Shown here one piece after another: positions 100 through 24,395 of a stretch of 26,008 nucleotides of DNA. Below the pieces are notes generated by a model, which was not told where the DNA came from, did no database searches, and saw only the letters and a list, made by a program, of their open reading frames with translations. The stretch's first letter is position 1, and every line of letters begins with the position of its first letter. This DNA is from a virus. Lineage: Duplodnaviria; Caudoviricetes. The DNA lies in IMG/VR virus record IMGVR_UViG_3300044708_000102, positions 1 to 26,008 of that record. One strand, 5' to 3'. The position numbers and the translations under genes were made by a program.

Positions 100-420
100 C
101 TAGCGGGCCTCGCTTTCTTTTTCTGGCGGCCAAACAGGGCATAAGTCCTTCGTTTCCGCGCTAGTAGCGTCCGTGAAATACAGTGCGCCACAGTCGCCCG
201 TCATCAGTTCCAGCGTGCCAAGCGGCTCGCCCTTGTGGTACAGTTGGACCGAGCGGTCAGCTAATAGTTCAATTTGCAGCGGCTCGCCGTCTGTTTGAAC
301 GGACTCGCCCGCTACGGGGTATTTGCGAGCAAGGTCTTGAAGTTCTTGGCGGCTAAGTGTGATAGCGGCCCCGATAGTTATCAGTTCCGGCCCCACAGGT
401 TCGTCTGAAAGTGATCTCAT
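100..420 (-). CDS. hypothetical phage protein
   Basis: ORF in the minus-strand block; ATG at 420 (MRSLSDEP) preceded by AAGGA. Confidence 0.6.
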   Translation of the reverse strand: MRSLSDEPVGPELITIGAAITLSRQELQDLARKYPVAGESVQTDGEPLQIELLADRSVQLYHKGEPLGTLELMTGDCGALYFTDATSAETKDLCPVWPPEKESEAR

Positions 421-629
421 AATTTTTTCCTTTTGCCCGCTAAACCCTAGCACCCCTTCCGGGGCCAGCCGCGAGCTATTCTAAATTGCTCGCTTTTAGC
501 TTTGCTGGGCTAGCGGGGCCTAAAATTTTTTGGTCGCCATCGTTTTCCTTGCCCGCCCATCCTGCCCTAGTCTACTACAGTATGTCAAGTACAAAATGCT
601 CAGGCAGGGAAAATATTTTTAGCGGCCCG

Positions 630-1043
630 CTACTCTCCGAAATAAAACTGCTGAGCGTATTCTAAAACCGTTGCCCGCTGCGCTTCGTCTAGCCGCGCTT
701 CAGTCCACGGCTTGAACCAGTCTTGATATTCAAAGCGGGCCGTGGTCGGCTGGCCGTCTTCAAGGTCGCCTACAATGCGGGTAGCGGGGCCGCCAGTCGA
801 AAGCAGAATGCAGTACTCGGCGGGCGTGCGGTCGGCGTCGGATGCTCCCGCTGTGTACCACCCGCTGCGGACTTCCACGGACAAGGGGGTTTCGGCAATC
901 TCGTTGCTTGCTCCAAAATCGTTGCCGGGGTCGTCGCCTTCTTGCGCGTCGTGTAAGCGGTCAAGTTGTTCCCGCATCCATTCGGCGGCCCGCTGGCCCG
1001 CTTCATTCGCCTGTGTCTGAAAATCTTTTTCTTCGGTCTGCAT
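630..1043 (-). CDS. hypothetical phage protein
   Basis: 137-aa ORF, AAAGGAG RBS, globular composition (LLSTGGPATRI..YQDWF). Confidence 0.8.
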   Translation of the reverse strand: MQTEEKDFQTQANEAGQRAAEWMREQLDRLHDAQEGDDPGNDFGASNEIAETPLSVEVRSGWYTAGASDADRTPAEYCILLSTGGPATRIVGDLEDGQPTTARFEYQDWFKPWTEARLDEAQRATVLEYAQQFYFGE

Positions 1044-1067
1044 TTTGTTTCTCCTTTGTCCGCGTTC

Positions 1068-1241
1068 TTAAAGCTTTTGTTTCCTGCGTGTTACACCTTT
1101 TCCACCACACACCACGCAACGGATGCCCCGCCACGCTCCAACAACCCACCCTAGCCCGCTACAACCCCAGCATGTGCTAGTGGGCCGTCGGCACCACGGG
1201 CACCAGTCTGGTTTAGCGTAGCTGTGCGGGCAAGGTGTCAT
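1068..1241 (-). CDS. small Zn-finger protein with DnaJ-type CxxCxGxG repeats
   Basis: Not in ORF track; translates MTPCPHSYAKPDWCPWCRRPTSTCWGCSGLGW...CVVCGGKG (57 aa); ATGA overlap with upstream stop. Confidence 0.65.
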   Translation of the reverse strand: MTPCPHSYAKPDWCPWCRRPTSTCWGCSGLGWVVGAWRGIRCVVCGGKGVTRRKQKL

Positions 1242-1423
1242 GATCCGAAGAAAAGACGGCGGCTGCGCTCTTGTCTGTCGTCGCGCTCTTGAATCGCTTT
1301 CTTAAACTCCATGGCTTTTTCTAGCGTCTCAGTCGAAAGACCCGATAGTTTAGCCAACTTTATACGCCTTTCCAAGCGCTCGTAGCTGAGAACCGAAAGC
1401 GTTTCAACATTTTGCGTTGCCAT
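1238..1423 (-). CDS. hypothetical protein
   Basis: 61 aa, GGGAGG RBS upstream. Confidence 0.7.
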   Translation of the reverse strand: MATQNVETLSVLSYERLERRIKLAKLSGLSTETLEKAMEFKKAIQERDDRQERSRRLFFGS

Positions 1424-1471
1424 GCCCGCACCCTCCCTGAGTCTGTTTAAACGTACTTAGCTAGCGGGCCG

Positions 1472-1705
1472 CTACAGCGACACGTACCAGATACCCTCAT
1501 CCGGTTCTGGCGGGGGCAAAATCTTTCGTGACGTGTTCTTAACGTCGGGTTGCGTCGGGCTGTAGGTCCATGACCCGTCGTCGGAGTCGTAGCCCTCAAT
1601 GACTACGGGCAAATCGCCGCGCTCGGCCTTGATCGCTTCCAAGCGCAGGATTAAATCGGAAATCTTGAAACTGGAATCTTTTTCTAAAAACGTTTGTGCT
1701 GTCAT
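1472..1705 (-). CDS. hypothetical protein
   Basis: 77 aa, GGAGG RBS, ATGA coupling; LIxxLxxxxxxxGDLPV pattern common in small phage proteins. Confidence 0.75.
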   Translation of the reverse strand: MTAQTFLEKDSSFKISDLILRLEAIKAERGDLPVVIEGYDSDDGSWTYSPTQPDVKNTSRKILPPPEPDEGIWYVSL

Positions 1706-2103
1706 TGTCCATTTCCTCCGTCGGGGCCCGCTAGCTTTCGTTCGCTAACCCATGCTTCACCTTGCCCGCTAACAGGCGTGACTAACAAATCAGTACGCCC
1801 ATAGACTCGCCTAGACTTTAACACACGGACAAGGAATGTCAAGTCTTTTGTGCTAGCGAGCCTTAAAATTTTTCCTTCTCGGTCGTCCACGATTGCGGGT
1901 AGGACGTGGCGGGCCGTTGATACTGTGCGGTGGTACCCGTCATAGTAGCCCGTGGAATAATCAGGCAACCCAGACCCAGCATTGAGCGCCACCACAAGAG
2001 GCACGCGGCCCATAAACCTATCCGTCCTGCCCGCCCGGTACCCGTTGCGGTAGTTTTCCGTTTGAACGGACTCCGGGCCGCTACCCATCGCGCTAGCCTG
2101 CAT
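1702..2103 (-). CDS. hypothetical protein
   Basis: 133 aa, overlaps both neighbours, AGGAG RBS. Confidence 0.65.
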   Translation of the reverse strand: MQASAMGSGPESVQTENYRNGYRAGRTDRFMGRVPLVVALNAGSGLPDYSTGYYDGYHRTVSTARHVLPAIVDDREGKILRLASTKDLTFLVRVLKSRRVYGRTDLLVTPVSGQGEAWVSERKLAGPDGGNGQ

Positions 2104-2350
2104 GGTTAGACTCCTGCGCTTCCCTTGCCCGCCGTAGTTCTAAAGCGTTCTCATGCTGGCACAGGGCGAACCAACCTCCCCACGGCCCGATAACAAAATC
2201 GTGCTCGGAGATGTCGCCTAGGCATTCTCCGCAGTATTCGTACTCAAAGAAAACTTCGGCCCATTCCTGCGCCGTTTGCCCGCTAGCATCGCGCTCTGGC
2301 GGGATTGGCGCGAAACCGTTACCCTTTACAATAGCTACTTGTTGGCTCAT
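2093..2350 (-). CDS. hypothetical protein (CxxC, possible Zn binding)
   Basis: Start moved to ATG 2350 after AAAGGAG; CGEC...H...C. Confidence 0.65.
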   Translation of the reverse strand: MSQQVAIVKGNGFAPIPPERDASGQTAQEWAEVFFEYEYCGECLGDISEHDFVIGPWGGWFALCQHENALELRRAREAQESNHAG

Positions 2351-2370
2351 CGGTCGTGCTCCTTTGGGGC

Positions 2371-2532
2371 CTAGCGGCCCGCTAGCGTCAAATAACACCT
2401 TACAATCCCACGCTTACCCGTTCCTTCAAACGCAGCAAGATGGCCGCGAACCGTCCACCAGTGCGCCCATTTGCGGGCCTCTGATAGCCTGAGCAATCCC
2501 GCGTCCGTCCGTTTGCGTCTAGGCGTCTTCAT
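2371..2532 (-). CDS. small basic hypothetical protein
   Basis: MKTPRRK... fills the gap between neighbours and overlaps the upstream stop. Confidence 0.45.
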   Translation of the reverse strand: MKTPRRKRTDAGLLRLSEARKWAHWWTVRGHLAAFEGTGKRGIVRCYLTLAGR

Positions 2533-2725
2533 ATTCCGCCTTGTCCGACAATGGGCCGGGGTCGTGCTCATCGTTCCACTCGCGGCATAGCTCGCGGGCC
2601 TCTTGTTCGCTAACCCCACGGGCTAGGTAGTGCTTGGTTCCGGCACCAGGTTCGCGGCCATTCGGCCAGCTTGGGTTAGGTTTCCACCACGTCCGATGGA
2701 ACACGTCAAAAGTTTCTTCGGCCAT
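2519..2725 (-). CDS. hypothetical protein
   Basis: 68 aa, AAGGAG RBS. Confidence 0.8.
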   Translation of the reverse strand: MAEETFDVFHRTWWKPNPSWPNGREPGAGTKHYLARGVSEQEARELCREWNDEHDPGPLSDKAEYEDA

Positions 2726-2785
2726 TTGTTTGTATCTCCTTTAGATTCAAAAATCTTTGCGGGCAAGGGAAGTGCTAGCGGCCCG

Positions 2786-3469
2786 CTATCCTTCCACGCT
2801 GTACCAGTAGTTCTCTTGCAGCTTGGTACGCTCTTTCTGTAGCCGCTGAATCCTCGTTTTGACACGGGACCATTCAGCCTTGCTCAGTTGTTCGACTAGC
2901 GGTAAGGTTTGGACGGCGGCCCGGTTAAGGCGCATTTCACGGCGTAGCGCACGATAGCCCGTGTACAAGTCTTTAATTTCGTCGGCTATTTCTTCGATGC
3001 GTGATTCTGCCCGCGATTTTGCCTCATATTCGCGTTCTTCTTCCGCGAAAATCTCCGCCATACGATCGGCGGCCCGTACCGCGTCCCGTAATTCGCTACG
3101 CACGTCGGAGAAGTCAACCCAAGCGCAATCCGTATTGTGGGGGTCCGCTACAGCGGGCAAGTATTGCGTTTCGCCGTCCCGTGCTGGCAACTGGTACACA
3201 TGCCCGCACGCCAATTGATCCTGAAATGAATCCATGTACCATCCCGTATGATCCATGCGGTAGGACTCGCGGGCCGCTACATCGTGGGCCGCGCCTACAC
3301 TGCGTAGGCCGTCGGAAACATGCTCTACCCATCGGCGGCCCTTGGTATTGGGGTTGTACTCAATGCACTTGTTCAGTCTGTAGCCGTACTTAGAATACCG
3401 TCGGCTAACGTAGGCCGTGAATGTTTCAGACTTCGGACCTTGCAAAAACCTTTCTGGTAGCTGTGTCAT
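2786..3469 (-). CDS. hypothetical protein with C-terminal coiled coil
   Basis: Long ORF, likely start ATG 3469 (MTQLPERF) after AAGGA. Confidence 0.8.
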   Translation of the reverse strand: MTQLPERFLQGPKSETFTAYVSRRYSKYGYRLNKCIEYNPNTKGRRWVEHVSDGLRSVGAAHDVAARESYRMDHTGWYMDSFQDQLACGHVYQLPARDGETQYLPAVADPHNTDCAWVDFSDVRSELRDAVRAADRMAEIFAEEEREYEAKSRAESRIEEIADEIKDLYTGYRALRREMRLNRAAVQTLPLVEQLSKAEWSRVKTRIQRLQKERTKLQENYWYSVEG

Positions 3470-3544
3470 ATCGTTTTTTCCTTTTGGCGTTTTGAGTGTG
3501 CCTCCCACTTTTTTCCGGGCCGCTAGCCCGTCTGTTTGAACGTA

Positions 3545-3739
3545 CTACCGTTTCAAATGCAATTTTGTTTCCACTCCGTTGTCGTCTGTCACAATGATCC
3601 AAGCTTCGCGTTCTCGCCCGCCATCAACTAACGCGGGCAAGTAGTATTCGTTGTAGCGCCCAATCTGTAGCTCATGATCGTCACTGAGCATTGTTTGGCC
3701 ATTCGCGAGTTTGGTTTTCACGTACATGCGGATTTTCAT
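3545..3739 (-). CDS. hypothetical protein
   Basis: Likely start MKIRMY at 3739. Confidence 0.6.
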   Translation of the reverse strand: MKIRMYVKTKLANGQTMLSDDHELQIGRYNEYYLPALVDGGREREAWIIVTDDNGVETKLHLKR

Positions 3740-3788
3740 AGCGGGCCTACCCTTTCCATTTGAACGTACTAGCAACTAGCTTGCCAAA

Positions 3789-4388
3789 CTAGCGGGCCTC
3801 TGGGATAACAGGCAGTCCCGTAGCTACCTCGTACACGGGGTATGGCGCTACACCGTCTTCAAACCAATCATGCCCCATGCAATAGGTTTTCGGCCCATCC
3901 GGGCAAGGATTGTCAAGATTGCCAGCACCGGGTACGCAAGGCGAGCAATATTGAGCGAACGTGTAGAACGGCGAACGCAGGATAAACACGTCCGAGTCAA
4001 GGCAATCCGTTAGCGAATAATCGCCGTCGTCCGATGCCCAGCCTAGCATTTCTTCGCTAAAAACGCTATCAGACCAATAGCATTCTTGACAAGGAATGCA
4101 CGTGTAGTCCTTGCCATCAAACCATGAAGGCGTACCATCGTCGTCTAGCTCGATTGGTTCGCCGTACTTGTCTTCCAGCTTGCCCGTGAACAGGCTTTCA
4201 TCGTCCGAAGCTTTGATAGTGTTTCCACACTTCGGGCATGTTGGCGGCCCATAGTTCGCGCCGTCCATGATCGTTTCATTGATCCAATCGCCTAGGCTGT
4301 GCTGTGAGACTACCCCGTAGTGAATCCCGTTTGTTTTGTCAACGTTTGATTGCCCTAGGCTGTAGTCGATACCTGCGTATGATGCCAT
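3789..4388 (-). CDS. Cys-rich acidic hypothetical phage protein
   Basis: 199 aa, GAGGA RBS, CPKC / CIPC / CSPC motifs. Confidence 0.85.
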   Translation of the reverse strand: MASYAGIDYSLGQSNVDKTNGIHYGVVSQHSLGDWINETIMDGANYGPPTCPKCGNTIKASDDESLFTGKLEDKYGEPIELDDDGTPSWFDGKDYTCIPCQECYWSDSVFSEEMLGWASDDGDYSLTDCLDSDVFILRSPFYTFAQYCSPCVPGAGNLDNPCPDGPKTYCMGHDWFEDGVAPYPVYEVATGLPVIPEAR

Positions 4389-4529
4389 GTTGTTATCCTC
4401 GTTTCGTTTGTTGTCCTACCAAGTACAGAAAAACTCGGGCAAGCTTGCAATACGTCAAAAAATCGCGGGCCGCTATGCAATCCTTTTGCCCGCTAATCAG
4501 TATGCGTAGTGCGTTACCTATGGGAGACA

Positions 4530-4865
4530 TTAGCTAGCGGCCCGATTCTCGAAAGTGTCAAGGGCCGCAAACAACGTGCTAGGCGCATCTAAGTACTCAC
4601 GGACAAGCGCAGGACCTACCCAGAGAATGCTATAGCGGGCCGTCCGGCCTACCCATCGGCAAAAACGCCAACCTTTCGGCACGTGGGCAAAGTCTACTCC
4701 ACGTTTGGCGAAAAAATCGCGGGCCGCTAGATATTGCTCCACGTCTAGCCCGTCCACTTCGTTCAAGAACGCATAGACGCGGGCATAATGGGCCGCTACC
4801 ATACGTTTTTCCTTGCCCGAAAGCTTGTCCCATTGATCTATCGGGTATCCGTGAGGTTTCGTCAT
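4530..4865 (-). CDS. hypothetical protein
   Basis: 111 aa in block orientation. Confidence 0.65.
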   Translation of the reverse strand: MTKPHGYPIDQWDKLSGKEKRMVAAHYARVYAFLNEVDGLDVEQYLAARDFFAKRGVDFAHVPKGWRFCRWVGRTARYSILWVGPALVREYLDAPSTLFAALDTFENRAAS

Positions 4866-4887
4866 GATCCGTAATCCTTCCGGGCCG

Positions 4888-5079
4888 CTAGTGAACCAAA
4901 ATTCGGCTAGCCATGCACGTTACCTGATAATCGTCCGCATACCACGCTTGCAAACGGTAGGACGTGGTAGCAACTAGCTCATCCCACTTGGCCAATAATT
5001 CAGCACTCCAGTATGTGTCGCGGGCAAGGATAGTTTCGGTTTCGTCCGCGTCATACCGTGCTATGTAAGCTTTACGCAT
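4888..5079 (-). CDS. hypothetical protein
   Basis: 63 aa, TAATG overlap with upstream stop. Confidence 0.65.
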   Translation of the reverse strand: MRKAYIARYDADETETILARDTYWSAELLAKWDELVATTSYRLQAWYADDYQVTCMASRILVH

Positions 5080-5660
5080 TAGTTTTGCTCCATTTCAGTA
5101 CCGCACAGGCAAACGGGCAAGCCAATAGCGGCCCATTTCGCCGTCAAACGTACCACGTATCCGCACGCTGGGCAAGATGCTTTAAGCAATCGGGTACCTT
5201 GTTTGTTCTTTTGGAGTGCTTTAATGTCAAACTCAGAGTGCGGGTACGCGGGCATTGTGGCTAGCAGTTCGTTTAAACGTACTGTCAATTCTGGGCCCGC
5301 TACAGTTGCCGTCGCCTTGCCCGTCAATCCTAGGGCCGTAGCGGCCCGTTTAAACGGTGTTTTGTGGCCGTGTTCGCATCCGACAACGGCATGGGCTATC
5401 TCATGGACCATTGTAGCCGCGATAACTAGCGGATCATTGAGCAATGGCGAGATAAAAATCTCGTTAGCGCCGTCCGCTGCACAAAGATGAGACCAGCACT
5501 CGCCAATGGTTCGATTCTTGCGCGATAGCGCCCGTTTGCTGGGCAATGCACAGCTAAAACGCATAGGGCCGCTAATCGCGTACCCTGATTCAGCGAACGC
5601 GGGCCGCAATCGGGCCGCTAACTCTACTAGCCATTGCTCGCGTGTGGTAATATCAGACAT
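5079..5660 (-). CDS. SprT-like zinc metalloprotease (Mpr-like)
   Basis: HEIAH (HExxH) followed by HGHKTPF, IGECW motif, C-terminal CPAC...CLC. Confidence 0.85.
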   Translation of the reverse strand: MSDITTREQWLVELAARLRPAFAESGYAISGPMRFSCALPSKRALSRKNRTIGECWSHLCAADGANEIFISPLLNDPLVIAATMVHEIAHAVVGCEHGHKTPFKRAATALGLTGKATATVAGPELTVRLNELLATMPAYPHSEFDIKALQKNKQGTRLLKASCPACGYVVRLTAKWAAIGLPVCLCGTEMEQN

Positions 5661-5663
5661 AGG

Positions 5664-5942
5664 TTAGCTCACTTTCAGGCTAGCGCCCGTATTTAGCGCC
5701 CGTGCGATTGTACCCCATGCGAACGTCCAACCAGTTCCACACACGCCCGCGAACGGTAACAGACGGCCCGCTATGCGGTACTCTGTCTTTTGCCCGCCAT
5801 GCTCAATAGTCACTTCGGGTAAATGCTCGCGCACTAACTCGGGCGTCCACTTGCCCGCTAGCACTTCGTGTTTAGGTTTGTTGTCCACGTTTAAACTTAG
5901 AGCAACCCTTATGCCAAACAAGGATAAGCGGGAAATGAACAA
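5664..5942 (-). CDS. hypothetical protein
   Basis: 92 aa, TTG start, abuts the SprT-like gene. Confidence 0.6.
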   Translation of the reverse strand: MFISRLSLFGIRVALSLNVDNKPKHEVLAGKWTPELVREHLPEVTIEHGGQKTEYRIAGRLLPFAGVCGTGWTFAWGTIARALNTGASLKVS

Positions 5943-6178
5943 GTTAAAAAGTCCCCTAGGTACGATATGTACCTAGGTCCTACTGATTCTAAAGCACTTC
6001 GCTATATTTTCGTATGTAATTTTGCTATAGCAATTTTATCCGATTGCGTAAAAAATCTATAGTAGAGCAATTAGCGGGCCAAACCCATTCTATTCAAACG
6101 TACTGATTTTTCAAGGGCCGCTAGCTTGATTTTCCTTGCCCGTATGCTTTGGCTATCAGATTGCATATAGGACGGGGT

Positions 6179-6472
6179 ATGCGCTTGATTCACAATTGCC
6201 GTAGTGCTGGCGGAGGTAGAGAATGGTCCCACTGTACCGGATGCGATGGACGTTTGCACATACCCGGATGCACAGCCAAACTTAACCCTAAGCGCGATTG
6301 CTGTGCGGCCCGCCACAAACTGCTATTTGACGCGGGCATTACTCGCGGGATATATGATGATTCATTCGCCATGTATCCCGAAGGATTACATGATCCTGAT
6401 AGCACAGTGGAACAAGACGCGAAGCTAGCACACGCTCGCCTAGTAGAGCTAGGGCTATACATAGCGAACTAG
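6179..6472 (+). CDS. Cys/His-rich hypothetical protein (lone plus-strand gene in the left block)
   Basis: ATG 6179 after AGGACGGGG; stop falls in the GC motif like its neighbours. Confidence 0.5.
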   Translation: MRLIHNCRSAGGGREWSHCTGCDGRLHIPGCTAKLNPKRDCCAARHKLLFDAGITRGIYDDSFAMYPEGLHDPDSTVEQDAKLAHARLVELGLYIAN

Positions 6473-6690
6473 CGGCCCGCTTCCCGTCCATTCAAACGAA
6501 CTAATTTCCGGCCCGCTAGCCCCGTGCTGTAGCCCTTGCCCGCTACCGTTCGTGTCTCATATTGCCCGCTAGGGCTAAACAAAAGGCGAATACAGAGTGA
6601 TAGCGGGCCGTTTTTCTGTTCAAACGGAAAAAGAAAACGGTCCTACCCAGTGAGGATAGGACCGTGAGAACGCGGGAATGATCCGGGCCG

Positions 6691-6933
6691 CTAGATCGAT
6701 GCGCCAAACAAATACCTATTGCCCGCTGGGTTGCCGCAGATATGGCAAGAACGCCAAGTAAACCCTTGCGACTCACCCAGGACTAGCCCGGTATGCGCGC
6801 CGTTATCCTCGCACGTTTGACGAATGCCGTCTCTGGTACGTTGTTCTTGCCCGTCATCCATGCCCGTGTAATCGTCATTCGCGATAGCTATGGCGCAATC
6901 GTCACAGCACAAACCAATTTCAAGGTATTCCAT
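6691..6933 (-). CDS. small Zn-binding hypothetical protein
   Basis: MEYLEIGLCCDDC...CHIC; GGAG RBS. Confidence 0.75.
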   Translation of the reverse strand: MEYLEIGLCCDDCAIAIANDDYTGMDDGQEQRTRDGIRQTCEDNGAHTGLVLGESQGFTWRSCHICGNPAGNRYLFGASI

Positions 6934-6981
6934 TATGGTTTCTCCGTTTTTCCGGGCCGCTATAAACAATCGGCCCGTGGG

Positions 6982-7212
6982 TTAGGGTTTGTCGCGTAAT
7001 TTGATATGCTCGCAGATAGCACGGGCAATGAGCGTACCTAAGTATCGCCGTTTGTGAGGTAGCTCGCCCGCTAGTTGTAAAACACGTACCGCACTTTGAT
7101 TAGCGGCTATCCACAAAGTCCCGTACTCGTCGGCGTACTTTGCATGATGCCCGCTAATCTCGCTTGCCTTTTGTTGTTCTAGTGCTTCACTTGCGGATAG
7201 GCGCTTAGTCAT
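6982..7212 (-). CDS. hypothetical protein
   Basis: Start MTKRLSASE overlaps the upstream small ORF. Confidence 0.6.
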   Translation of the reverse strand: MTKRLSASEALEQQKASEISGHHAKYADEYGTLWIAANQSAVRVLQLAGELPHKRRYLGTLIARAICEHIKLRDKP

Positions 7213-7366
7213 TAGGCCGTACCGTGTTAACGAGTGCTTCAGCGGTAGCGGGCGAGCAACCCAGCGAACGCACGCAAAGCAAGTACAAGCGAACGCGCGC
7301 GGATTGAACGCGGCTATCAAGCTGGGCCGCGTACTCTTGCAAAAGAACCAAAGTGTGTTTGTTCAT
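7205..7366 (-). CDS. hypothetical protein, first gene of the leftward block
   Basis: Not in ORF track; MNKHTLVLLQEY... 53 aa; TGnTATCCT extended -10 lies 7 nt upstream of ATG. Confidence 0.55.
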   Translation of the reverse strand: MNKHTLVLLQEYAAQLDSRVQSARVRLYLLCVRSLGCSPATAEALVNTVRPND

Positions 7367-7423
7367 GTTCCGAAGGATAACACACTATGACGCGGGCCGG
7401 ATCATAGCGGCCCGCTAGCTTGC

Positions 7424-7436
7424 TAAGTTATTGATT
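7424..7436 (-). promoter_or_regulatory. IHF-consensus site
   Basis: Minus strand AATCAATAACTTA matches WATCAANNNNTTR exactly. Confidence 0.5.
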
Positions 7437-7678
7437 CTTTATTCTACCTTGCCCGCTATAAGAGATAACAATGGGTATATCATGGTTCATTTTGTTACCA
7501 TGCTGTAGCTCATGGCGCTAGCCGTTCGCCCGTCCTAGGGGATTTGTAGCGCGAGATTTTTTCCGTTTGAATGGACTAGGGCCGCTATCACCTCGATTCG
7601 TTCCGGGCCGCTAGCAATTCAATCCTTGCCCGCTGTGTTAAAGACCTAGAACAGACAAGAGGTCATGAGAGACAGACG

Positions 7679-7726
7679 TAAGGTCATTACTGAGGTCATG
7701 CCCGAGGTCAGCACTAAGGTCATGAC
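7679..7726 (+). repeat. four tandem 12-bp repeats with AGGTCA core
   Basis: TAAGGTCATTAC TGAGGTCATGCC CGAGGTCAGCAC TAAGGTCATGAC, plus an extra AGGTCA at 7660. Confidence 0.85.
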
Positions 7727-8584
7727 AATCGGGGCCGCTAACTGAGCTAAACCTAGTGAATTACTACAGCCTAACGGTATCGGGCCGCTATCTAGCCCTT
7801 GGTAGCCCTGTTATAGCCCAGCGATTCCGGGCCGCTAGCACTCAATACGCTCACTCAGGATGGATATCCAGACAAGCCAATCCTTGCCCGCGTCATTCAT
7901 ATTGCCCGCTAGCGTTCTGTTCAACCAGAAAATCGCGGGTCGCTAGCTATATCCGATCCTTGCCCGCGTCTTTAAAGAAGGAATAAGGGAAGACAGAGAG
8001 ACAAGGGAAGACAGAACGGCCCAGCACGGCGGCCCGTGGTTCGCGCTTGCCCGCTATCATGTTGATAATACGCTCAAAGCGTGCTCACAGAAGGATACAC
8101 AGATAACACAATCCTTGCCCGCGTAGTTCCTAGCGTCTCCCAGCGTTTCTACAAAGTAGAGTATAGCCCGTAGGCTGTGTCAATCGCGCACTAAAGCGTG
8201 GTAAAATTGCAACGAACAAAGTATGGTAGTTCTAGACATTCGCAAAAACTACATTGTAGTAGCATCGAACTAAGTCTATTGTTTGCAATCAATTCCCTTG
8301 ACTAGTTACATCAAGGTACATCTACGTAATTGATAACACTCAGGCTATCTCGGGCCGCGTTTAGACCTATCCAGACGTGGTTTTTAGGCTAGCTCGCTGT
8401 TTGTTTTCAGTAGGTTACAGATAGGGGACCCTAATTTTAGAGCGTAGGGTGGAGGGGGTTTTCCCCTTTAGAATCAGTGAGTTAGTGTAAGGTACCTAGC
8501 ACCCACGACCTTTTTCTTCATCCCCAGTCTCGTCAACAACTTAAAAAATTCACGCCGTTCCGTAGCCGACACGACAACAATGTC

Positions 8585-9360: not shown

Positions 9361-10594
9361 CGAGAATGACCCTTTCACCGCCCAATGGCTGAAAGAACTA
9401 ATCAAAGCCAAACACATTTCAAACGGTGTCGTAGACACCCGCTCAATAACGGAGGTTTTACCTGGAGACCTATCTGGTTACAAACAATGCCACTTCTTCG
9501 CCGGAATCGGGGTTTGGAGCTACGCTCTTAGACAATCTGGATTCTCAGACGACCGAAAAATCTGGACAGGAAGTTGTCCCTGCCAGCCGTTCTCAGCGGC
9601 GGGCAAACGCAAAGGAACCGAAGACGAAAGACATCTTTGGCCCGTGTGGTTTGAACTCATCCGAGCCTGCAAACCTGAGCTTGTGGTTGGCGAGCAAGTT
9701 GCGTCAAAAGACGCACTCGCTTGGATCGACACTGTACAAACTGATATGGAAAAACAGGACTACGCCTTCGGGGCGGTTGATACCTGCGCTGCGGGGTTCG
9801 GTGCTCCGCACATCAGACAAAGATTGTATTGGCTGGCCCACGCGGCGTGGGCCACACGGATCGGGACCATCGGACGCGATAACTCGGGGATTGACCCCAG
9901 ACGGGGCCGCGAGATTGACGGGCTGGCCGACGCTGAAAGTCCAGCCCGGGGATTATCAATACACGGGACCAGATCGCGGGATTGGGTTGAACCTGTCGGG
10001 GGCAGCGCAGTTGGCGAGTCCCGAGGATTCGGTGGTGGCTCAGAAGATGGGGCTATCAGGTTGGCCGACTCCAGACAAGAACAGTGGCGAGCGAGTATGG
10101 AACGCCGACCCGACAACACTAGTTCGTTTGAACGGAACGAAGAATCAATTCACGATCAACAACGCGGCGAACACGGCGGGGTGGGGTACCCCGAACTGCA
10201 TGGACTATCTCCCGAGCAACAATCTGGAGGAACGGCGGAAAAAGGGTGGCTGTTCAAACCTGAAGGATCAGGCACCGCTGACGGGAGGATCGGGTTGGTC
10301 AACACCGACAACTCGGGATCACAAGGACGGTGCCTGCCAGAACGCGAACGTTCCCGTGAACGGACTGCTTGGCGACCAAGCAGTCCTAGTAGGCCCAATC
10401 CGACTAACGGCTTCTGGCGAGACGTTGACTGGCTCTGGTGCAGGGATTCCAAGTGGCGGCCCGTTGAACCCGGAACTTCCCCGCTGGCTAATGGGGCTCC
10501 CGCCAGAGTGGGACGATTGCGCGGTTTTGGCAACGCAATCGTTGCCCCGCAAGCCACGGAATTCCTCAAAGCGGTCCAAGAAATTATTGGTTGA
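9347..10594 (+). CDS. DNA (cytosine-5) methyltransferase, alpha polypeptide
   Basis: Motif I FFAGIG, IV GSCPCQPFS, VI EQV, VIII APHIRQR, X GFGNAIV; motif IX absent; central ~200 aa looks non-globular. Confidence 0.9.
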   Translation: MNYYNENDPFTAQWLKELIKAKHISNGVVDTRSITEVLPGDLSGYKQCHFFAGIGVWSYALRQSGFSDDRKIWTGSCPCQPFSAAGKRKGTEDERHLWPVWFELIRACKPELVVGEQVASKDALAWIDTVQTDMEKQDYAFGAVDTCAAGFGAPHIRQRLYWLAHAAWATRIGTIGRDNSGIDPRRGREIDGLADAESPARGLSIHGTRSRDWVEPVGGSAVGESRGFGGGSEDGAIRLADSRQEQWRASMERRPDNTSSFERNEESIHDQQRGEHGGVGYPELHGLSPEQQSGGTAEKGWLFKPEGSGTADGRIGLVNTDNSGSQGRCLPERERSRERTAWRPSSPSRPNPTNGFWRDVDWLWCRDSKWRPVEPGTSPLANGAPARVGRLRGFGNAIVAPQATEFLKAVQEIIG

Positions 10595-11390: not shown

Positions 11391-11758
11391 CCGAGTCTGT
11401 TCAAACGAACTATCACCCGCTAACTGAAGAAGAACTCGGGCAAATAGAACAGCTAGCGGCCCGAGCTAGCAAATTCTACCTAGCCTGCCCGCAGAACTTG
11501 GGTATCGCGCAAGAGGAAGGCAAGTGCGGCTACCACCCCATGCGACCAGAAGACGCGGCTTTTTGCGGGGCGGCCCGCCAGCACGTTCCTCGCTTGACCG
11601 CTGAAGTACGTAGGCTGTGGGCACGGGTAGCGGAACTGGACGATCTGATTGACTGTTTGGAGGACGACAAGGTTGATCTTGAGGTCCAGTTGGAAGACGC
11701 TCGGGACGAAATTGAAGACTTGGAAGACCAACTGGCGGGCAACGACGAGTCCGTTTAA
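11387..11758 (+). CDS. hypothetical protein with acidic coiled coil (Ead/Ea22-like DAAFxxAAR pattern)
   Basis: ATGA overlap, GAGGA RBS, EDAAFCGAARQHVPRL. Confidence 0.7.
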   Translation: MTESVQTNYHPLTEEELGQIEQLAARASKFYLACPQNLGIAQEEGKCGYHPMRPEDAAFCGAARQHVPRLTAEVRRLWARVAELDDLIDCLEDDKVDLEVQLEDARDEIEDLEDQLAGNDESV

Positions 11759-11774
11759 ACAGAATGGGGCCGCT

Positions 11775-12200: not shown

Positions 12201-12401
12201 ATGTTGAAGTTGACACACCGAGAGTTTGTAGTTGGCAAGCTGATGAAAGAACTTGAGCGGGCAAAAAGCACTGAAAAGATTATTGAAATCGCAGAGCTTT
12301 TGCTGAAGTTCGGAGTCGGGTCGCCAAAACCGAGAAAGAAACGGGCACCGCCCGAGCCGCCAGAAGCACCGAAACCTCTCGACCCGCTACTGGCCAAATA
12401 G
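12201..12401 (+). CDS. hypothetical protein
   Basis: 66 aa; stop coincides with an 18-bp palindrome. Confidence 0.5.
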   Translation: MLKLTHREFVVGKLMKELERAKSTEKIIEIAELLLKFGVGSPKPRKKRAPPEPPEAPKPLDPLLAK

Positions 12402-12425
12402 TACGTTCAAACGAACTGGAGACAA

Positions 12426-13901: not shown

Positions 13902-14116
13902 CAGTAGCGGAAGTCAAGGCTTTGGAGCCGCTAGCGGACGTAGTCGAATTGAAACCAGAGGCCCGCTATTTATTTTTGCTCCCTACTTGCCCGCCTCCGA
14001 ACGTAATCAATTCGTTGACTGGCAACCCAGGACTGGCGGGGATTAGCGGCGCGGTAGTTTGCTACGCGGAAGGCTTCAAGATTTACGAACTTGGCGGGCA
14101 AGAGAAATCTGGTTAA
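13898..14116 (+). CDS. hypothetical protein
   Basis: GTGA overlap, 72 aa. Confidence 0.65.
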   Translation: MTVAEVKALEPLADVVELKPEARYLFLLPTCPPPNVINSLTGNPGLAGISGAVVCYAEGFKIYELGGQEKSG

Positions 14117-14191
14117 ACAGAATGATCGGGGCCGCTATAGGTTGTATCGTGGCTATTTTCTTAATTCTAGTCTGGTGCCGGGAGCCTGTAG

Positions 14192-14656: not shown

Positions 14657-14847
14657 ACTTTCCGCTAGACAATTGCCGCGAAATTGAATTGACGTGCTGC
14701 GTATGTGGAGGCCAGAAAAAATCTGACGGCACTTGCGTTCGCGGGACGTGTTCAGATTGCCGGGCCGCTATTTCCGCGCCAGCCATCCCATACGAAGACC
14801 TCTGGGGCTATCCACAGCAATCCTTGGCCGCCAAAGTTTCTGTTTGA
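14653..14847 (+). CDS. Cys-rich hypothetical protein
   Basis: GTGA overlap; CCVC...CSDC. Confidence 0.5.
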   Translation: MNFPLDNCREIELTCCVCGGQKKSDGTCVRGTCSDCRAAISAPAIPYEDLWGYPQQSLAAKVSV

Positions 14848-14854
14848 ACGTACT

Positions 14855-17427: not shown

Positions 17428-17886
17428 ATGGCAGACTCGATACCTGCGAGGTTGAGACAAAAGGTCTTCGCTCGCGACAACAACCGATGTGTTGGATATA
17501 GCGGGCCTTGTGGCCGTGAAGAAGGTTTGACCGTAGACCATATCGTGGAGAAATCCAAGGGTGGTCCGACGGTGTTAGAAAACCTCCAGACACTTTGCAT
17601 ACCGTGTCACACGCATAAGAACATGGGGCGGCCCCATCCCGAGCCAGAACGTATTTTGAGTTCGTTTGAACGGATGCGGGCAAAGCATAAGTCTCGAACC
17701 CGCGTGCCCGCTGCCGTAAGGCGGAAACGCAAAGCGGCGGCCAGGGAGTGCGTTAAAGAAATCCCTGGATACAACCAGCCGCTATATCGTATTTTGGATT
17801 TTGAAGACGGACAACTTTTGCGGCGCGACCCGAATGCGATTTGGGCTATAGCGCCAAAATATTATGGTATGTCCGCAAGTGTTTAA
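17428..17886 (+). CDS. HNH endonuclease
   Basis: VFARDNNRC...LTVDHIVEKSKGG...ENLQTLCIPCHTHK. Confidence 0.9.
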   Translation: MADSIPARLRQKVFARDNNRCVGYSGPCGREEGLTVDHIVEKSKGGPTVLENLQTLCIPCHTHKNMGRPHPEPERILSSFERMRAKHKSRTRVPAAVRRKRKAAARECVKEIPGYNQPLYRILDFEDGQLLRRDPNAIWAIAPKYYGMSASV

Positions 17887-18802: not shown

Positions 18803-18807
18803 AGTTC

Positions 18808-18896: not shown

Positions 18897-18901
18897 TTTT
18901 C

Positions 18902-18987: not shown

Positions 18988-18991
18988 TTTC

Positions 18992-19455: not shown

Positions 19456-19766
19456 TGCGGACTGACCGTAGGTGGCCGCGCAATTTGTGCTGGTGTATTT
19501 TATGCAGGCAAAGCGTTCCTAGTAAGAAAGAACTGAGACGCCGAACACGTAGGGTAGCGGCCCGAAATCTTTACCGCGAAGTCCATTCAAACGTACTCCA
19601 AAATTTTTGAGCGCCAGCTTAGTTTTTCCTTGCCCGCTCATTATTTCTCGTTAACTCAAAATCGCGATCTTACAATCGGATTTTAGTTTTTAGAGGCTCT
19701 GCTTAGGCAGCAGCCAGCGGCCTCCGGGCCGCCAACTCCAAACAAAGCAGAGGATAATAAATCACT

Positions 19767-20775: not shown

Positions 20776-21747
20776 ATGTCCATTCAACCAGACACGTACA
20801 CGGAGAAGTTAGCGCAGCAGTTAGCGGCCAAAGTCGTGGGACAAGACGCGGCTATTGAGCAAGTAGTAAATGCTATTGTTCGCTGGCGGGCCGGGCTCGC
20901 CGGAATCGACCGACCCGTAGCAGCGTTTCTGATGATGGGCCAAACCGGATGTGGCAAAACGCTTTTAGCCGAATCGTTGACCGAAGTCATGCACGGCGAC
21001 GCCCGCATGATGATTAAGATTCACTGCGCTGAATACAAGCACAGCCATGAATGCGCCCGACTGATTGGCGCGCCACCCGGATACATCGGACACAAAGAAA
21101 CGCAACCGAGGTTGAGCTCGCGCCGAATTCAGGAAGCGCAGACCAAGAACTGCCCGCTGGTCATAATCCTGCTGGACGAAATCGAAAAAGCCCATCCCGA
21201 TTTCTGGGATATTTTCTTGGGTATCCTAGACAAAGGCGAACTGCATTTGGGTGATGGCGGTTCGACGGATTTAAGACAATCCATAATTCTGATGAGTTCG
21301 AACGTCGGTGCTCGCGAAGCCTCGCAGTCGGCGGGCTTTCTGATTGATCGGAAAAAGACGGCGGCTAGTGCGGCTAAGAAGTTGTTTAGTCCCGAATTCC
21401 GCAACCGCTTAACAACCGAAATCGTATTTAACACTTTGTCCGCAGAGCAGCTTCGTGCTATTGCTGATCTTGAATTACAACGTTCAGCCGCACGTGTTCT
21501 GACGGCCAAAGGGGTCGCGGTTGAGTTCCAAAAGGACGTTACCGACTTAATTTTGAAAGACCTTGACCAAGACTTCGGTGCTCGGCCTATTCGGCGTGCT
21601 ATTGAAAACCTGATCGAACTTCCACTGGCAAAGCATTTGATTGACACACAGCTTATGCCGGGCGACACTGTCGAAATCGAAGTCAAGAACGGCGAAATAA
21701 AAATTTTCAGACAGCGACCAGCCAAGGCCGCGAAAGGATCAGCGTAG
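20776..21747 (+). CDS. stand-alone ClpA/ClpB D2-type AAA+ ATPase
   Basis: VVGQ, Walker A GQTGCGKT, pore loop GAPPGYIG, Walker B LLDEIEKAH, FSPEFRNRL, GARPIRR. Confidence 0.92.
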   Translation: MSIQPDTYTEKLAQQLAAKVVGQDAAIEQVVNAIVRWRAGLAGIDRPVAAFLMMGQTGCGKTLLAESLTEVMHGDARMMIKIHCAEYKHSHECARLIGAPPGYIGHKETQPRLSSRRIQEAQTKNCPLVIILLDEIEKAHPDFWDIFLGILDKGELHLGDGGSTDLRQSIILMSSNVGAREASQSAGFLIDRKKTAASAAKKLFSPEFRNRLTTEIVFNTLSAEQLRAIADLELQRSAARVLTAKGVAVEFQKDVTDLILKDLDQDFGARPIRRAIENLIELPLAKHLIDTQLMPGDTVEIEVKNGEIKIFRQRPAKAAKGSA

Positions 21748-21894: not shown

Positions 21895-21895
21895 A

Positions 21896-22150
21896 TTGTA
21901 CGAGCCTAAATCCATATATTGCGGACTAGTTCCGTACTACAAAGTGACGTTAGTACGAACACGAACCCAGCGGAAAACATTCAGCGTTTTTCAAGTTCAA
22001 GATGTTCCTTCTGCAATAGCCGAAGCCCAGAAAATGGCCGCCGACTCGGAAGAAGGCTGGAGTTCACCAGCCGATACGTTTAAAGCCACCGAGGCCACTC
22101 CCCGACAAACGGGAGACGACTGGGGCCAGTTCCCGAAGCAGTCTGTTTAA
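21896..22150 (+). CDS. hypothetical protein
   Basis: 84 aa; start uncertain; stop lies in an 18-bp palindrome. Confidence 0.55.
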   Translation: MYEPKSIYCGLVPYYKVTLVRTRTQRKTFSVFQVQDVPSAIAEAQKMAADSEEGWSSPADTFKATEATPRQTGDDWGQFPKQSV

Positions 22151-22211
22151 ACGTACTTAGTTTTTCGCCCGCCAGCAGTAAGACTTTCCTTGCCCGCTAT
22201 ACCCCCGCCAA

Positions 22212-24143
22212 ATGACATTCGCAGAACTGGTAGACAAATACCAGACCGCTCCAGCTATCCCCGACGAAGAACTATACGACATGATGGTTTCGTTTCGAGA
22301 CTATCTCGTAGCGCAATATCGTGCGGGAGTCAAGCTAGCTGACCAGCCATACGGTCAAGAAATACGTCGTCGGACTGAGCAAGACTTATTCTGGGCGTGC
22401 CGCTATTTCACTTGGAATACAAACCCAGCGGGCGTAGACAAGCCTGTAGCGGACAACGGGATTACCCGCGAGACCCACGGCGAAGTTTGCGATTTCTTTG
22501 TTAAGAAAGACAAATCAAAGAAAATCCGCGACCAAGACGTGTTCAAGAACCGGATTCTGCTATTTCCTCGCGGTTCACTGAAAACGACCGTGGACATCGT
22601 AGACGCAGTCCAGTGGATTCTCAACTTTCCCGAGATTCGAATTCTGATCTTGACCGCAGCCGACGATTTGGCCTACGGAGTCGTTTCAGAAATCAAAGGT
22701 CACTTCTTACTCTACGAAGAACCGTCGTGGATGAATTTGTTTTTCCCCGAGTTCTGCGTAACAGATAAAACAGCATCTAAGGGTTCCGAGGGCTGGTTCG
22801 TTTGCCCCGTGTGGGCCGCCAAAGGCTTAGAGCGCAAAGAGCCTACAGTGCTAGCGGCCACAGTTTTGGAAGCCTTGGCCGGGTTGCACTTTGAAGTCGG
22901 CAAGCTGGACGACGCGGTCAGCAACACCAACTCGAATACAGAAGAACTTTGCAAGAAGCTGACCAACCGAGTCGATCTGCACCGCAAGATGATTATGCGG
23001 TGGGGTTATTGGGACAAAATCGGGACACGCTATCAAGAGTACGACGACTACGGAACCGAACTTGCCCGTTTAGAGCGCTACAAAGCCAAACTGAGCCAAA
23101 TCCGACCGGGTCTTGAAGGTCTCATAGACGACAAGACTAAAACGAAGGTTTTGGTTGGCCGAGCCGTCTTAATCAAAAAAGAAACTGAAGCTGCGCTGGT
23201 CACGGAAGGCAAAGAACTCTCGTACGAAGAAGCTGGTGAAGACGGCTGCTATATTTTGCTGCCGCACCTGATTTCGTTCCAAGAATTTCTAGTTGACTAC
23301 GACAAGAACCCGCTAGATACTGAAGGCCAGCTTAACCAGAATCCGACCCCACCGTTTGAATCGGATTTCACGCATCAGATGATGCTTCAGGCTACGGTGC
23401 CCGCGTTAGATTTACCAGAACTCGGGCCGATCACGCTGTTCTGGGACTTAGCGTCAAAGAACAAAAAGCAAAGCGATTTCTCGGTATGTACAGCGGTGTT
23501 GTGGGACGCCGTTAAAGGCACCGGGTATCTGGTTGACTACACCAAGCAGAAGTATTCGCCGACCGAGTTAGCCCGTGCCATTGTGAACTCGATTCGAGAC
23601 CACATGCCGCTGAAAGTCGGGATTGAAGACGTAGGGTTTTCTAGCCACATTCAGTACGCCATTAACGACATCGCGCTAAAGACGTCGCGGCAAGACAAAA
23701 ACCCCCGAATTTTTGAAATTGCACAGGCAATTGAGTGGGTACCAACCAAGAACAACAAGGACGAAAAAGACAACCGCATCAAGTCTTTGCACCCCGAATT
23801 CGTTTTTGGCCGCATGAAGTTTAGCGCGTCTTGCCCGATGCTCGAAGAACTCTATGTTGATTTCGAGCGTTTCCCGCACAGAAAGCACGACGACGGCCCG
23901 GACTCCTTGGCGTACCAACTGCGATACCGTCCGATTGGTTTGGCGGCATCTGCCAGCGGAGACGTAATCCATTTTTCATACCGCGACAAGCTTTTGAATT
24001 GGGCCCGCCGCGACATTTTTGAACCTGATATTCAGGACTATATGAAGCTGCCTGAATTGGTTCCGGTTGAACTAAAACGAGAAGAACACAACACTACGCC
24101 GGATGGTCTTGAAAACATCTTAGGCTCGTGGTGGACTGGATAA
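22212..24143 (+). CDS. terL: terminase large subunit
   Basis: Walker A variant PRGSLKTT, Walker B GKLDD, IGTRY coupling motif, nuclease WDLAS...SDFS and HDDGPDSL; sits upstream of portal. Confidence 0.9.
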   Translation: MTFAELVDKYQTAPAIPDEELYDMMVSFRDYLVAQYRAGVKLADQPYGQEIRRRTEQDLFWACRYFTWNTNPAGVDKPVADNGITRETHGEVCDFFVKKDKSKKIRDQDVFKNRILLFPRGSLKTTVDIVDAVQWILNFPEIRILILTAADDLAYGVVSEIKGHFLLYEEPSWMNLFFPEFCVTDKTASKGSEGWFVCPVWAAKGLERKEPTVLAATVLEALAGLHFEVGKLDDAVSNTNSNTEELCKKLTNRVDLHRKMIMRWGYWDKIGTRYQEYDDYGTELARLERYKAKLSQIRPGLEGLIDDKTKTKVLVGRAVLIKKETEAALVTEGKELSYEEAGEDGCYILLPHLISFQEFLVDYDKNPLDTEGQLNQNPTPPFESDFTHQMMLQATVPALDLPELGPITLFWDLASKNKKQSDFSVCTAVLWDAVKGTGYLVDYTKQKYSPTELARAIVNSIRDHMPLKVGIEDVGFSSHIQYAINDIALKTSRQDKNPRIFEIAQAIEWVPTKNNKDEKDNRIKSLHPEFVFGRMKFSASCPMLEELYVDFERFPHRKHDDGPDSLAYQLRYRPIGLAASASGDVIHFSYRDKLLNWARRDIFEPDIQDYMKLPELVPVELKREEHNTTPDGLENILGSWWTG

Positions 24144-24146
24144 AAT

Positions 24147-24374
24147 ATGAAGAAGCCGTACACGGGCCGTGACAAGCAGACTGGCGAAGCCACAGCCCCG
24201 CCGCGAGTCCAAGAAAAAATGCCGATGACTACGGGCATGACTAACTTTGGTGAAGACACTTTGTGTCCGCGTGATTACGAAGCTAAAATCATGACGGTTA
24301 GCGACCCCGATGTTACAGTCAAAGAACTTCCTGGCTGGAACTTCACTACTGGTGCAATTAGCGGCGGTCGCTAG
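24147..24374 (+). CDS. hypothetical protein
   Basis: 75 aa between terL and portal. Confidence 0.65.
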   Translation: MKKPYTGRDKQTGEATAPPRVQEKMPMTTGMTNFGEDTLCPRDYEAKIMTVSDPDVTVKELPGWNFTTGAISGGR

Positions 24375-24395
24375 TCCGTTTAAACGGAAAAACTT

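Follow-up and report, generated by a model that had tools for sequence, protein, structure and literature searches.

Dispersed palindromes have been described in Cluster O mycobacteriophages, whose genomes, according to the 2015 report (PMC4351075), each carry more than 30 copies of an invariant 17-bp dyad repeat, TGTTCGGNNNCCGAACA, with an A/T-rich centre. The repeats are found in intergenic regions, at the 5' ends of genes and inside genes, mostly off promoters, and the same text gives them as absent from the host and their binder as unknown; no binder or function has been identified for such genome-wide phage palindromes so far. Our literature search, whose coverage left out most subscription journals, yielded no description of dispersed parS-like phage dyads beyond this paper. 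Cluster A stoperators, according to PMC4351075, are also numerous in each genome, lie at gene junctions and are bound by one phage protein, and are asymmetric and oriented. The ParB-parS and Noc-NBS systems, as described in PMC7383237, pair palindromes on the 16-bp scale with a two-fold symmetric HTH DNA-binding domain, in which ParB R173 reads guanine 1 of parS.

Here we analysed a 26,008-nt stretch of soil phage DNA (the window), which is part of a phage genome of roughly 100 kb, the host probably belonging to the Acidobacteriota. The closest terminase relatives match at 55-62% (P0002-P0004), and no further fragments of the phage genome were found among 8 viral and 98 metagenome pattern matches. 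A symmetric weight matrix, iterated to convergence on the window, identified 23 copies of one 18-bp dyad with the consensus AGTCCGTTYRAACGGACT, about one per kb (Table 1). The sites score 16.0-26.8 bits, the next-best match in the window 9.9 bits. At ≥14 bits, Markov nulls of order 1, 3 and 5 (40 runs each) contained 0.15-0.43 dyads, and synonymous-codon shuffles in which the proteins were kept (n = 200) a mean of 1.5 and a maximum of 5, well below the 23 observed. The preliminary description of this DNA had proposed about 24 copies of a dispersed repeat; the repeat is confirmed, with 23 copies instead of 24, and all 13 coordinates quoted there carry the 18-mer given for them. The half-site consensus AGTCCGTTY tolerates one change, at positions 4-5, which read CC (16), CT (15), AC (9) or TC (6) in the 46 halves, and the centre is restricted to TA, TG or CA at the 23 sites. 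TG and CA centres are present on both arms, the matrix is symmetric and there is no orientation with transcription. Dyads are spread across the early, tRNA and packaging modules with a spacing more even than random (p = 0.009), a property seen in 5 of 10 genomes examined and absent from the other 5. A second motif, TAGCGGSC, has 57 of its 78 copies in the left arm and the divergence region (1..8500) and lies within 15 nt of 13 of the 23 dyads.

Table 1. The 23 dyads of the window and their surroundings; (+) and (-) denote the strand.
Position	Location	Translation, score or other remark
288..305	inside gene 100-420 (-)	ESVQTD; 23.8 bits
1440..1457	between stop 1472 and ribosome-binding site of gene 1238-1423 (-)	
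2055..2072	5' part of ORF 1702-2103 (-)	ESVQTE
3529..3546	overlaps TAG of gene 3545-3739 (-)	
3753..3770	14 nt upstream of start 3739 (-)	touches its ribosome-binding site
5266..5283	inside SprT-like gene 5079-5660 (-)	
6087..6104	over spacer and -10 of sigma70-like match, - strand	such matches at chance level overall
6485..6502	region without secure genes	
6613..6630	directly after terminator-like hairpin 6665-6637 (-)	
7560..7577	non-coding divergence region	
7914..7931	non-coding divergence region	weakest, 16.0 bits
8855..8872	inside endonuclease VII-like gene 8623-9360 (+)	ISVQP
10121..10138	inside two overlapping methyltransferase frames	
11394..11411	codons 3-8 of gene 11387-11758; adjoins stop 11390	ESVQTN
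11748..11765	centre is TAA of gene 11387-11758	
12400..12417	overlaps TAG 12399-12401	precedes ribosome-binding site of start 12426
14106..14123	contains TAA of 13898-14116; overlaps ATG 14122	
14837..14854	contains TGA of 14653-14847; ATG next at 14855	
17659..17676	inside HNH gene within tRNA array	
19580..19597	13 nt ahead of stop 19610	
20777..20794	overlaps ATG of ClpB-like AAA gene	MSIQP; identical in L001
22140..22157	contains TAA of 21896-22150; 55 nt before terL	
24373..24390	overlaps TAG 24372-24374; 5 nt before portal start	identical in L001

The ClpB-like AAA gene at 20777 has no ribosome-binding site. In the homologous sequence L001 the counterpart of the 22140 dyad differs at 4 bases and lies at nearly the same distance with a different upstream gene, i.e. 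the position of the site is kept while its sequence changes. One window dyad lies in a SprT-like gene, a family found in 6 of 9 dyad-bearing records and also in the dyad-free G033.

Terminase relatives, placed with a quick tree in which the G031 row is fragmentary and G040 and G033 have long branches, carry dyads of their own throughout the genome, built from the half-site KTCCR with a spacer of N4 or N5 and amounting to up to 62 sites. KTCCR-N5-YGGAM was found 52 times in G024, 33 times in G010, 27 times in G032, 20 times in G031 and 62 times in G039, against a single match in each of the five reversed controls. With the N4 spacer there are 22 sites in G030, where the dyad has the form TGTCCGGWWCCGGACA and thus parS length, and G013 has 15 N4 and 16 N5 sites side by side. 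The relatives' dyads are 16-17 bp long and number 20-62 per record, compared with 18 bp (N6) in the window. The exact N6 consensus of the window is carried by unrelated AT-rich 60-kb phages (33-37% G+C), and across three unrelated phage groups the half-site is kept and the spacer changed (N4/N5/N6). At one per 1-5 kb, with the whole genome covered, the sites are far denser than those of ParB or Noc.

Most dyad-bearing relatives encode in their replication module a stand-alone protein of about 220 aa (alignments A4/A6). The dyad is present in 12 of the 14 lineages with a gene of this A4 family (one carrier, L323, being judged on 20 kb only), and complete records without the gene (G033, G034, G037 and Tunturi_3) show no N5 excess; G038 has both gene and dyad, its terminase sister Tunturi_3 neither. 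G007 (66% complete) has an intact-looking A4 gene and no dyad, and further motif searches for a hidden one were blank. In the AlphaFold model of the candidate (pLDDT 85.8), helices begin at residue 13 and the HTH falls within the N-terminal half. Foldseek ranks 1-2 are the ParB DBD-parS entry 6s6h (prob 0.99, E 0.064, TMt 0.47-0.52), with ParB, Noc and Spo0J entries next in rank; a VIA match at rank 3 (Z 6.7, rmsd 9.4) is within the noise range. The family has no ParB sequence match in Pfam or PDB, ParB_N is absent among the families listed (25 of 30) for 19 A4 members, and PF01672, a precomputed label on P0139, is absent among the families listed in a later Pfam check. In nearly all of at least 150 homologues (149-400 aa) the profile matches from the N-terminus. 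The candidate is thus predicted from its model, on moderate fold evidence, to have a ParB/Noc DNA-binding fold without the N-terminal CTPase domain, and therefore no sliding clamp would be expected.

In seven genomes whose candidate has Arg at position 1 of the recognition helix, the base before TCCR is G in 58-93% of the excess half-sites; this falls to 23% with Lys, where T dominates, and to 21% with His, and G040, with a rebuilt recognition helix, has other dyads. Judged by sequence, the outer base appears to shift in 2 cases where the first recognition-helix arginine changes, although these are only 2-3 contrasts and the Arg carriers are kin; by an alignment of the motifs, this arginine would be the equivalent of ParB R173. 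Profile searches found no A4 gene in the window or L001, and no member of the family was found in the AT-rich phages that share the exact N6 consensus. Neither the candidate of those phages (A5; probability 0.3%) nor the DUF3102-like family A3 gave a significant profile alignment to A4, both comparisons placing the HTH segments in register, and BLAST linked these AT-rich phages to the terminase clade by a single 53-aa match only. Within the window, Pfam and PHROG scans (50 ORFs), a DUF3102 model and the A3 and A4 profiles were all blank, which bears out the earlier remark that no cognate protein is encoded there.

That the repeats are sites for a dimeric protein, as first suggested from the sequence, gains indirect support from the dyad itself, the lack of hairpin co-variation, the conservation of site position despite sequence change, the dyad family of the relatives and their candidate with a predicted ParB fold. 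We propose that the dyads would be bound, as double-stranded DNA, by a phage-encoded dimer with a predicted ParB/Noc-type fold and no CTPase clamp, that an A4-type gene would sit in the phage's unseen ~75 kb, and that dimers bound roughly every kilobase would coat the genome of the phage itself. Binding of the dyad by an A4-type protein is reasonably probable. The view that this protein acts on genome architecture, by marking the phage DNA, bridging it or compacting it separately from the host's, and does not control single promoters, is tentative, with chances a little short of even. It is doubtful, although worth stating, that a CTPase-less ParB domain has been repeatedly recruited by phages as a self-marking nucleoid protein; if true, each lineage would write 20-60 parS-like dyads (KTCCR, spacer 4-6) genome-wide, and this would amount to a widespread system without previous description (1,096 protein clusters), one that would account for the orphan repeats of Cluster O.

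Using 49 hand-curated genes and a threshold of 15 nt from a start or stop, we found 12 of the 23 dyads at gene boundaries (background 13.5%, p = 1e-5), as the preliminary description had led one to expect; 10 are near a stop (p = 1e-5) and 8 near a start (p = 6e-4). The enrichment at stops is not independent of the motif, because the motif contains TAA/TGA/TAG and the dyad itself supplies the stop codon at 7 sites, and the clustering at junctions probably arises because an 18-mer with stop codons is cheapest there. Five dyads are plainly intragenic (288, 5266, 8855, 10121 and 17659), and another four or five are in 5943-8622, a region with poor annotation. The recurring peptide (E)SVQT that had been noted is found in the translations as ESVQT (288, 2055, 11394), ISVQP (8855) and MSIQP (20777). 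Boundary placement is strong in the window and two relatives and weak or absent in 5 of 9 relatives. A promoter association of the dyads was rejected: sigma70-like matches occur at chance level (11 vs 11.5).

The start enrichment in the window, in G024 (17 of 52 sites) and in G039 (16 of 62) suits a repressor and speaks against coating. The same kind of phage protein might act in the manner of stoperators, silencing or timing the genome at junctions through bound dimers that occlude promoters and ribosome-binding sites and stop elongating RNA polymerase; this is the main alternative, which we consider unlikely but deserving of attention. Sites 20777 (on an ATG), 6087 (on a sigma70-like match) and 6613 (behind a terminator) would fit it, as would two sites in relatives, one immediately before the G010 A3 gene and one within codons 3-7 of the G038 A4 gene, and the integrase-like proteins that we read from the ORFs of several relatives. 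However, G010, G032, G013, G030, G038 and G001 show no enrichment at starts, sites near the start are missing from most A4 genes, structural genes contain many of the sites, and the dyad is symmetric, whereas stoperators are asymmetric and oriented (PMC4351075).

It is improbable that the binder is the A3 protein, DUF3102-like with a C-terminal AT-hook, or that several ParB-fold proteins share the sites. The A3 family occurs in 10 of 40 records, all of them dyad-bearing, its top VIA match is Spo0J residues 98-208 (Z 7.5, 106 aligned), its ESM Atlas neighbours are DUF3102 clusters, and the coexisting N4 and N5 sites of G013 are consistent with shared binders. Yet A3 was not found in G030 and G031, which are complete and carry the dyad, or in G013, G016 and G012, and its recognition helix varies far more than the half-site does. 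Recombination junctions for the swapping of small gene cassettes, the gene-end placement being a record of this traffic, would account for L001 homology resuming 10 nt past site 22140 behind a non-homologous gene, for at least three pieces of a relative in run X2 whose starts coincide with or lie within sites 11748, 14113 and 19580, and for two deletions between Cluster O repeats reported by Cresawn et al. Such a role is quite improbable, as variation at the centre and positions 4-5 makes the dyad too degenerate for a site-specific recombinase, other breakpoints (L001, run X2) are at site-free gene ends, and five dyads are intragenic.

Recruitment of a host nucleoid or regulatory protein is very improbable. 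The exact N6 consensus does recur in unrelated phages, but at their G+C content these are unlikely to share the host, and spacer and outer base differ among related phages. The window pattern, with 18 matches in the 26 kb of the window for comparison, is not enriched in 60 acidobacterial genomes of the probable host order (23 vs 26 in the control; one unpublished genome left out). In an Acidobacteriota bin, 42 N5 matches compare with 45 in the control; 7 of the 42 fall on contig C120, evidently a 50.7-kb contig with a terminase relative (L453) and a coinciding site at 16656, and outside this phage contig there is no enrichment. The dyad is phage-specific, without enrichment in acidobacterial chromosomes. 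Single-stranded hairpins of the REP/small-dispersed-repeat type are scarcely credible and largely refuted by the half-pairing test: 135 of 207 positions are complementary between halves, whereas re-pairing the halves at random gives 140.5 ± 5.6. The halves do not co-vary and are therefore not those of a hairpin, and every window copy departs from a perfect palindrome. In genomes of cyanobacteria and Chloroflexota the perfect 18-mer makes up a single hairpin within larger repeats, which we take to be of REP/SDR type; these have several co-varying hairpins per unit, whereas the window dyad stands alone and its flanks hold no companion hairpin.

The motif is here connected with a spacer-changing dyad family and with a single named candidate, a protein in which the recognition helix seems to follow the site; the binder question therefore becomes open to tests that need only short oligonucleotides and a small purified protein. 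The family would also form a natural series for following shifts in spacing and base preference among ParB-type domains, and would supply compact orthogonal DNA-binding pairs.

The initial statement that the consensus matches no known one holds only in part, in that under one degenerate pattern the half-site fits the published Cluster O dyad (PMC4351075). In Corndog, KTYCR-N5-YGRAM has 28 matches in 25.8 kb vs 2.3 expected; its gp90 is a ParB_N protein without alignment to A4, and no A3 or A4 match was found in this phage. The window resembles the Cluster O genomes in its tens of dyads, their A/T-rich centre, their mixed inter- and intragenic location, mostly off promoters, and the lack of acidobacterial enrichment, and differs in length (18 bp with N6, not 17 bp), in degeneracy, and in phage group and host; a half-site pattern is held in common, the spacer differs and no common protein was detected. 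Like stoperators, the window sites are many and lie at gene junctions, but they are symmetric dyads, and no immunity repressor came to light. In contrast to ParABS, with a ParA ATPase and few sites clustered near the origin, the dyads are found genome-wide, 20-62 per record, with variable spacer, and unlike ParB and Noc the relatives' candidate is predicted to have no N-terminal CTPase (ParB_N) domain. Noc sites are themselves dispersed, and the likeness to ParB and Noc extends to palindromes of 16-18 bp and, in the relatives' candidate, to the same predicted fold with a conserved Arg starting the recognition helix.

The palindrome is a genuine repeat of the window: the 18-mers quoted in the preliminary description are present at 13 of 13 positions, and a symmetric weight matrix returns 23 sites, one fewer than the 24 or so counted there. 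These sites score 16.0–26.8 bits, and the interval between 9.9 and 16 bits is empty. Markov null models predict 0.15–0.43 sites at 14 bits, and synonymous codon shuffles yield a mean of 1.5 and a maximum of 5 in 200 shuffles. The half-site is AGTCCGTTY, with one change tolerated at positions 4–5, and the centre is TA, TG or CA in every copy. Complementarity between the two halves (135 of 207 positions, 140.5 for random pairs) is not above random; the halves therefore do not co-vary, which points to recognition as double-stranded DNA rather than as a hairpin. The same property sets the window copies apart from the perfect 18-mer in cyanobacterial and Chloroflexota genomes, which there forms one hairpin within larger repeated units. 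The proposed placement on gene boundaries was borne out among the 49 curated genes, 12 of the 23 sites lying ≤15 nt from a start or stop against a background of 13.5% (p = 1e-5). Starts are nearby at 8 sites and stops at 10, the start figure being the cleaner test because seven sites themselves provide the stop codon. The sites are also spaced more evenly than random placement would give (CV 0.61 versus 0.94, p = 0.009).

The palindrome is not a host signal. The window pattern occurs 18 times in 26 kb of phage DNA versus 23 times in 60 genomes from the order of the Ca. Sulfotelmatobacter bin (one unpublished genome excluded), where the control pattern occurs 26 times. The bin itself holds 42 matches to the version with a 5-nt spacer (N5), a total not above the control (45); seven of them fall together on contig C120, which is evidently the 50.7-kb contig that carries the terminase relative.

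The exact matrix of the window detects no site cluster around the terminase in 79 more distant relatives. Conservation in related phages, which the preliminary description had put forward as a check, was nevertheless found, with the same half-site and a spacer shorter than the window's 6 nt (N6). Among 33 records, where the reversed pattern gives 0–4 matches per record as a control, KTCCR-N5-YGGAM was counted 52 times in G024, 41 in its near copy G022, 33 in G010, 27 each in G020 and G032, 20 in G031 and 16 in G013; it is absent from G006, G028 and G034, and about ten further records are at control level. The N4 version is found 22 times in G030, and G013 carries both spacers in one genome (15 N4, 16 N5). 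At the locus L179 N4 and N5 dyads likewise coexist in about equal numbers. The N6 consensus of the window recurs 8–17 times in unrelated AT-rich phages of ~60 kb (G001–G003, G041). Gene ends in the relatives were taken from crude automatic calls. On that basis, the tendency to lie near a start or stop is pronounced in G024 and G039 (p about 1e-11), modest in G030 and G031 and absent in 5 of 9 genomes, and 7 of the 9 have an excess of intergenic sites. Even spacing was seen in 5 of 10 genomes.

ORF clustering of 12 clade records yielded a candidate binder, a family of 212–250 aa (A4) that adjoins the primase-helicase in each of the nine among them that bear the dyad. It is present in 13 of 40 records, plus four more through a direct scan. 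Counting near copies once and using whole-record data only, the dyad accompanies 12 of 14 A4-bearing lineages, being weak in G008 and G015; G007 has the gene and no detected dyad. Three records were reached via the A4 protein alone. In G039 there are 62 N5 sites; G038 carries an N4 dyad; and G040, whose A4 gene encodes a rebuilt helix, has no such dyad and two other repeated motifs instead. These are 12 copies of ACTWM-N8-KWAGT ending in CATAAGT, possibly a phage promoter, and 8 copies of RGTAC-N4-GTACY (L337–L341). Four complete records without the gene, among them Tunturi_3, show no N5 excess, and G038, the terminase sister of Tunturi_3, has both gene and dyad. In a Foldseek search with the AlphaFold model of A4 (pLDDT 85.8), the top-ranked structure is the ParB DNA-binding domain on parS (probability 0.99, E 0.064), and other ParB, Noc and Spo0J entries follow; a wide structural aligner gives Z 6.7 and 6.6, within its noise range. 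A ParB_N domain was not seen in the model or among the family matches listed for 19 members. Searched against 1.84 billion representatives, the A4 profile matches 1,096 clusters when the cut-off is E 1e-3 and 195 when it is 1e-30.

Guanine 1 of parS is recognised in ParB by R173, a residue of the GKSR motif (PMC7383237). The matching helix position was assigned through motif alignment of the A4 family and compared with the base outside the half-site. With Arg there (seven genomes), G makes up 58–93% of excess half-sites; with Lys (G024) T dominates and G falls to 23%, and with His (G016) A and T dominate and G is 21%. Two contrasts plus G040 suggest a helix–base link, which is not statistical proof. 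A second predicted ParB-fold family, DUF3102-like with an AT-hook (A3), is in 10 dyad-bearing records and was not found in the complete records G030 and G031. In the AT-rich N6 phages a third small protein (A5) heads the early operon; its nearest named clusters are DUF3102, PF49 partition protein and DUF6192, and it has no significant alignment to A4.

The window takes in the entire virus record, a fragment of 26 kb estimated 27% complete, with tRNA genes, terminase, SU10-type portal, ClpB-like ATPase, methyltransferase and endonucleases. As the preliminary description had observed, no obvious cognate protein is encoded: the A4 profile has no match in the window, nor in its near relative L001, and no further pieces of the window's genome were found. 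The phage probably carries the gene outside the fragment, since a quick terminase tree places the window in a clade of 17 rows (support 99), and the fuller members of this clade have A4. The host is probably acidobacterial, because the nearest cultured terminase (27%) belongs to Tunturi_3, a podovirus of Acidobacteriota (PMC11924767), the two terminase relatives found inside bacterial genomes are both in Acidobacteriota bins, and the two runs containing window DNA are soil metagenomes. The L001 terminase is 99% identical to that of the window; sites 20777 and 24373 are unchanged there, two additional sites lie further right, and the site before terL differs by four bases, with a different upstream gene. 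L001 also has another small Lys/Arg-rich basic protein gene before terL. The 4.7-kb tRNA stretch of the window contains a single dyad.

Features of the window beside the 18-bp sites
Feature	Position	Strand	Description
Second motif family	1-8500		dense; sparser up to 26008
AGGTCA repeats	7657-7725		5 direct repeats, 12-21-nt spacing, iteron-like, in non-coding divergence region; possible origin or packaging signal
C5 methyltransferase gene	9347-10625		overlapped by 324-aa second frame also matching methyltransferase PHROGs; frame pair also in G008; possible frameshift or overprinting
Small Lys/Arg-rich basic proteins	13758-13901; 21748-21894		52-79% conserved across clade; candidate DNA-condensing proteins
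tRNA array	15564-19065		28 tRNA genes, including tRNA-Ile with anticodon TAT; inserted HNH and PD-(D/E)XK endonucleases
ClpB-like AAA gene	20776-21747		stand-alone C-terminal AAA domain; no ribosome-binding site, dyad overlaps start, TTGAC-like element ~35 nt upstream; possibly leaderless

The second motif family comprises TAGCGGSC (78 copies, 3.9 expected), GGGCCGCTA (36, 0.4 expected) and CGGGCAA (60, 6.7 expected), frequently arranged as TAGCGG-S-CCGCTA dyads. A TAGCGGSC-type motif lies ≤15 nt from 13 of the 23 sites, with 4.0 expected under local shifts; the motif may resemble the KorB operator half-site. Non-palindromic 8-mers of their own are over-represented in several of G013, G016, G030, G031, G038 and G040, for example CGAGGTCA (71 in G013), GCCGCGCA (38 in G038), GGATATAC (35 in G016) and GGCTAYAC (G030), which hints at a second marking system peculiar to each lineage.

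Each dyad would most likely be bound by a dimer that the phage itself makes, with a predicted DNA-binding domain of the ParB type but lacking the CTP clamp. The geometry of the dimer would be set by the flexible pyrimidine-purine centre together with the lineage-specific spacer. What the bound protein does is less certain. A roadblock would make the sites work much as stoperators do, from which they differ in not being asymmetric; we consider this reading less likely than coating. Our tentative preference is that the protein coats and marks phage DNA while it is being replicated or packaged, because the sites occur in every module, are often evenly spaced, lie mostly off promoters and are seldom found in host DNA. 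Coating would resemble the working of Noc on dispersed NBS sites, with the difference that the candidate protein lacks a CTPase domain. The closest counterpart is the 17-bp repeat of Cluster O mycobacteriophages, which fits KTYCR-N5-YGRAM (28 in 25.8 kb of Corndog versus 2.3 expected). Its authors inferred a dimeric binder, considered it improbable that the repeat acts in transcription initiation, and identified no binding protein (PMC4351075). The window sites belong with these repeats as an 18-bp variant of an already known but unexplained kind, to which the present analysis adds a candidate binding protein, none having been found earlier in the literature searched.
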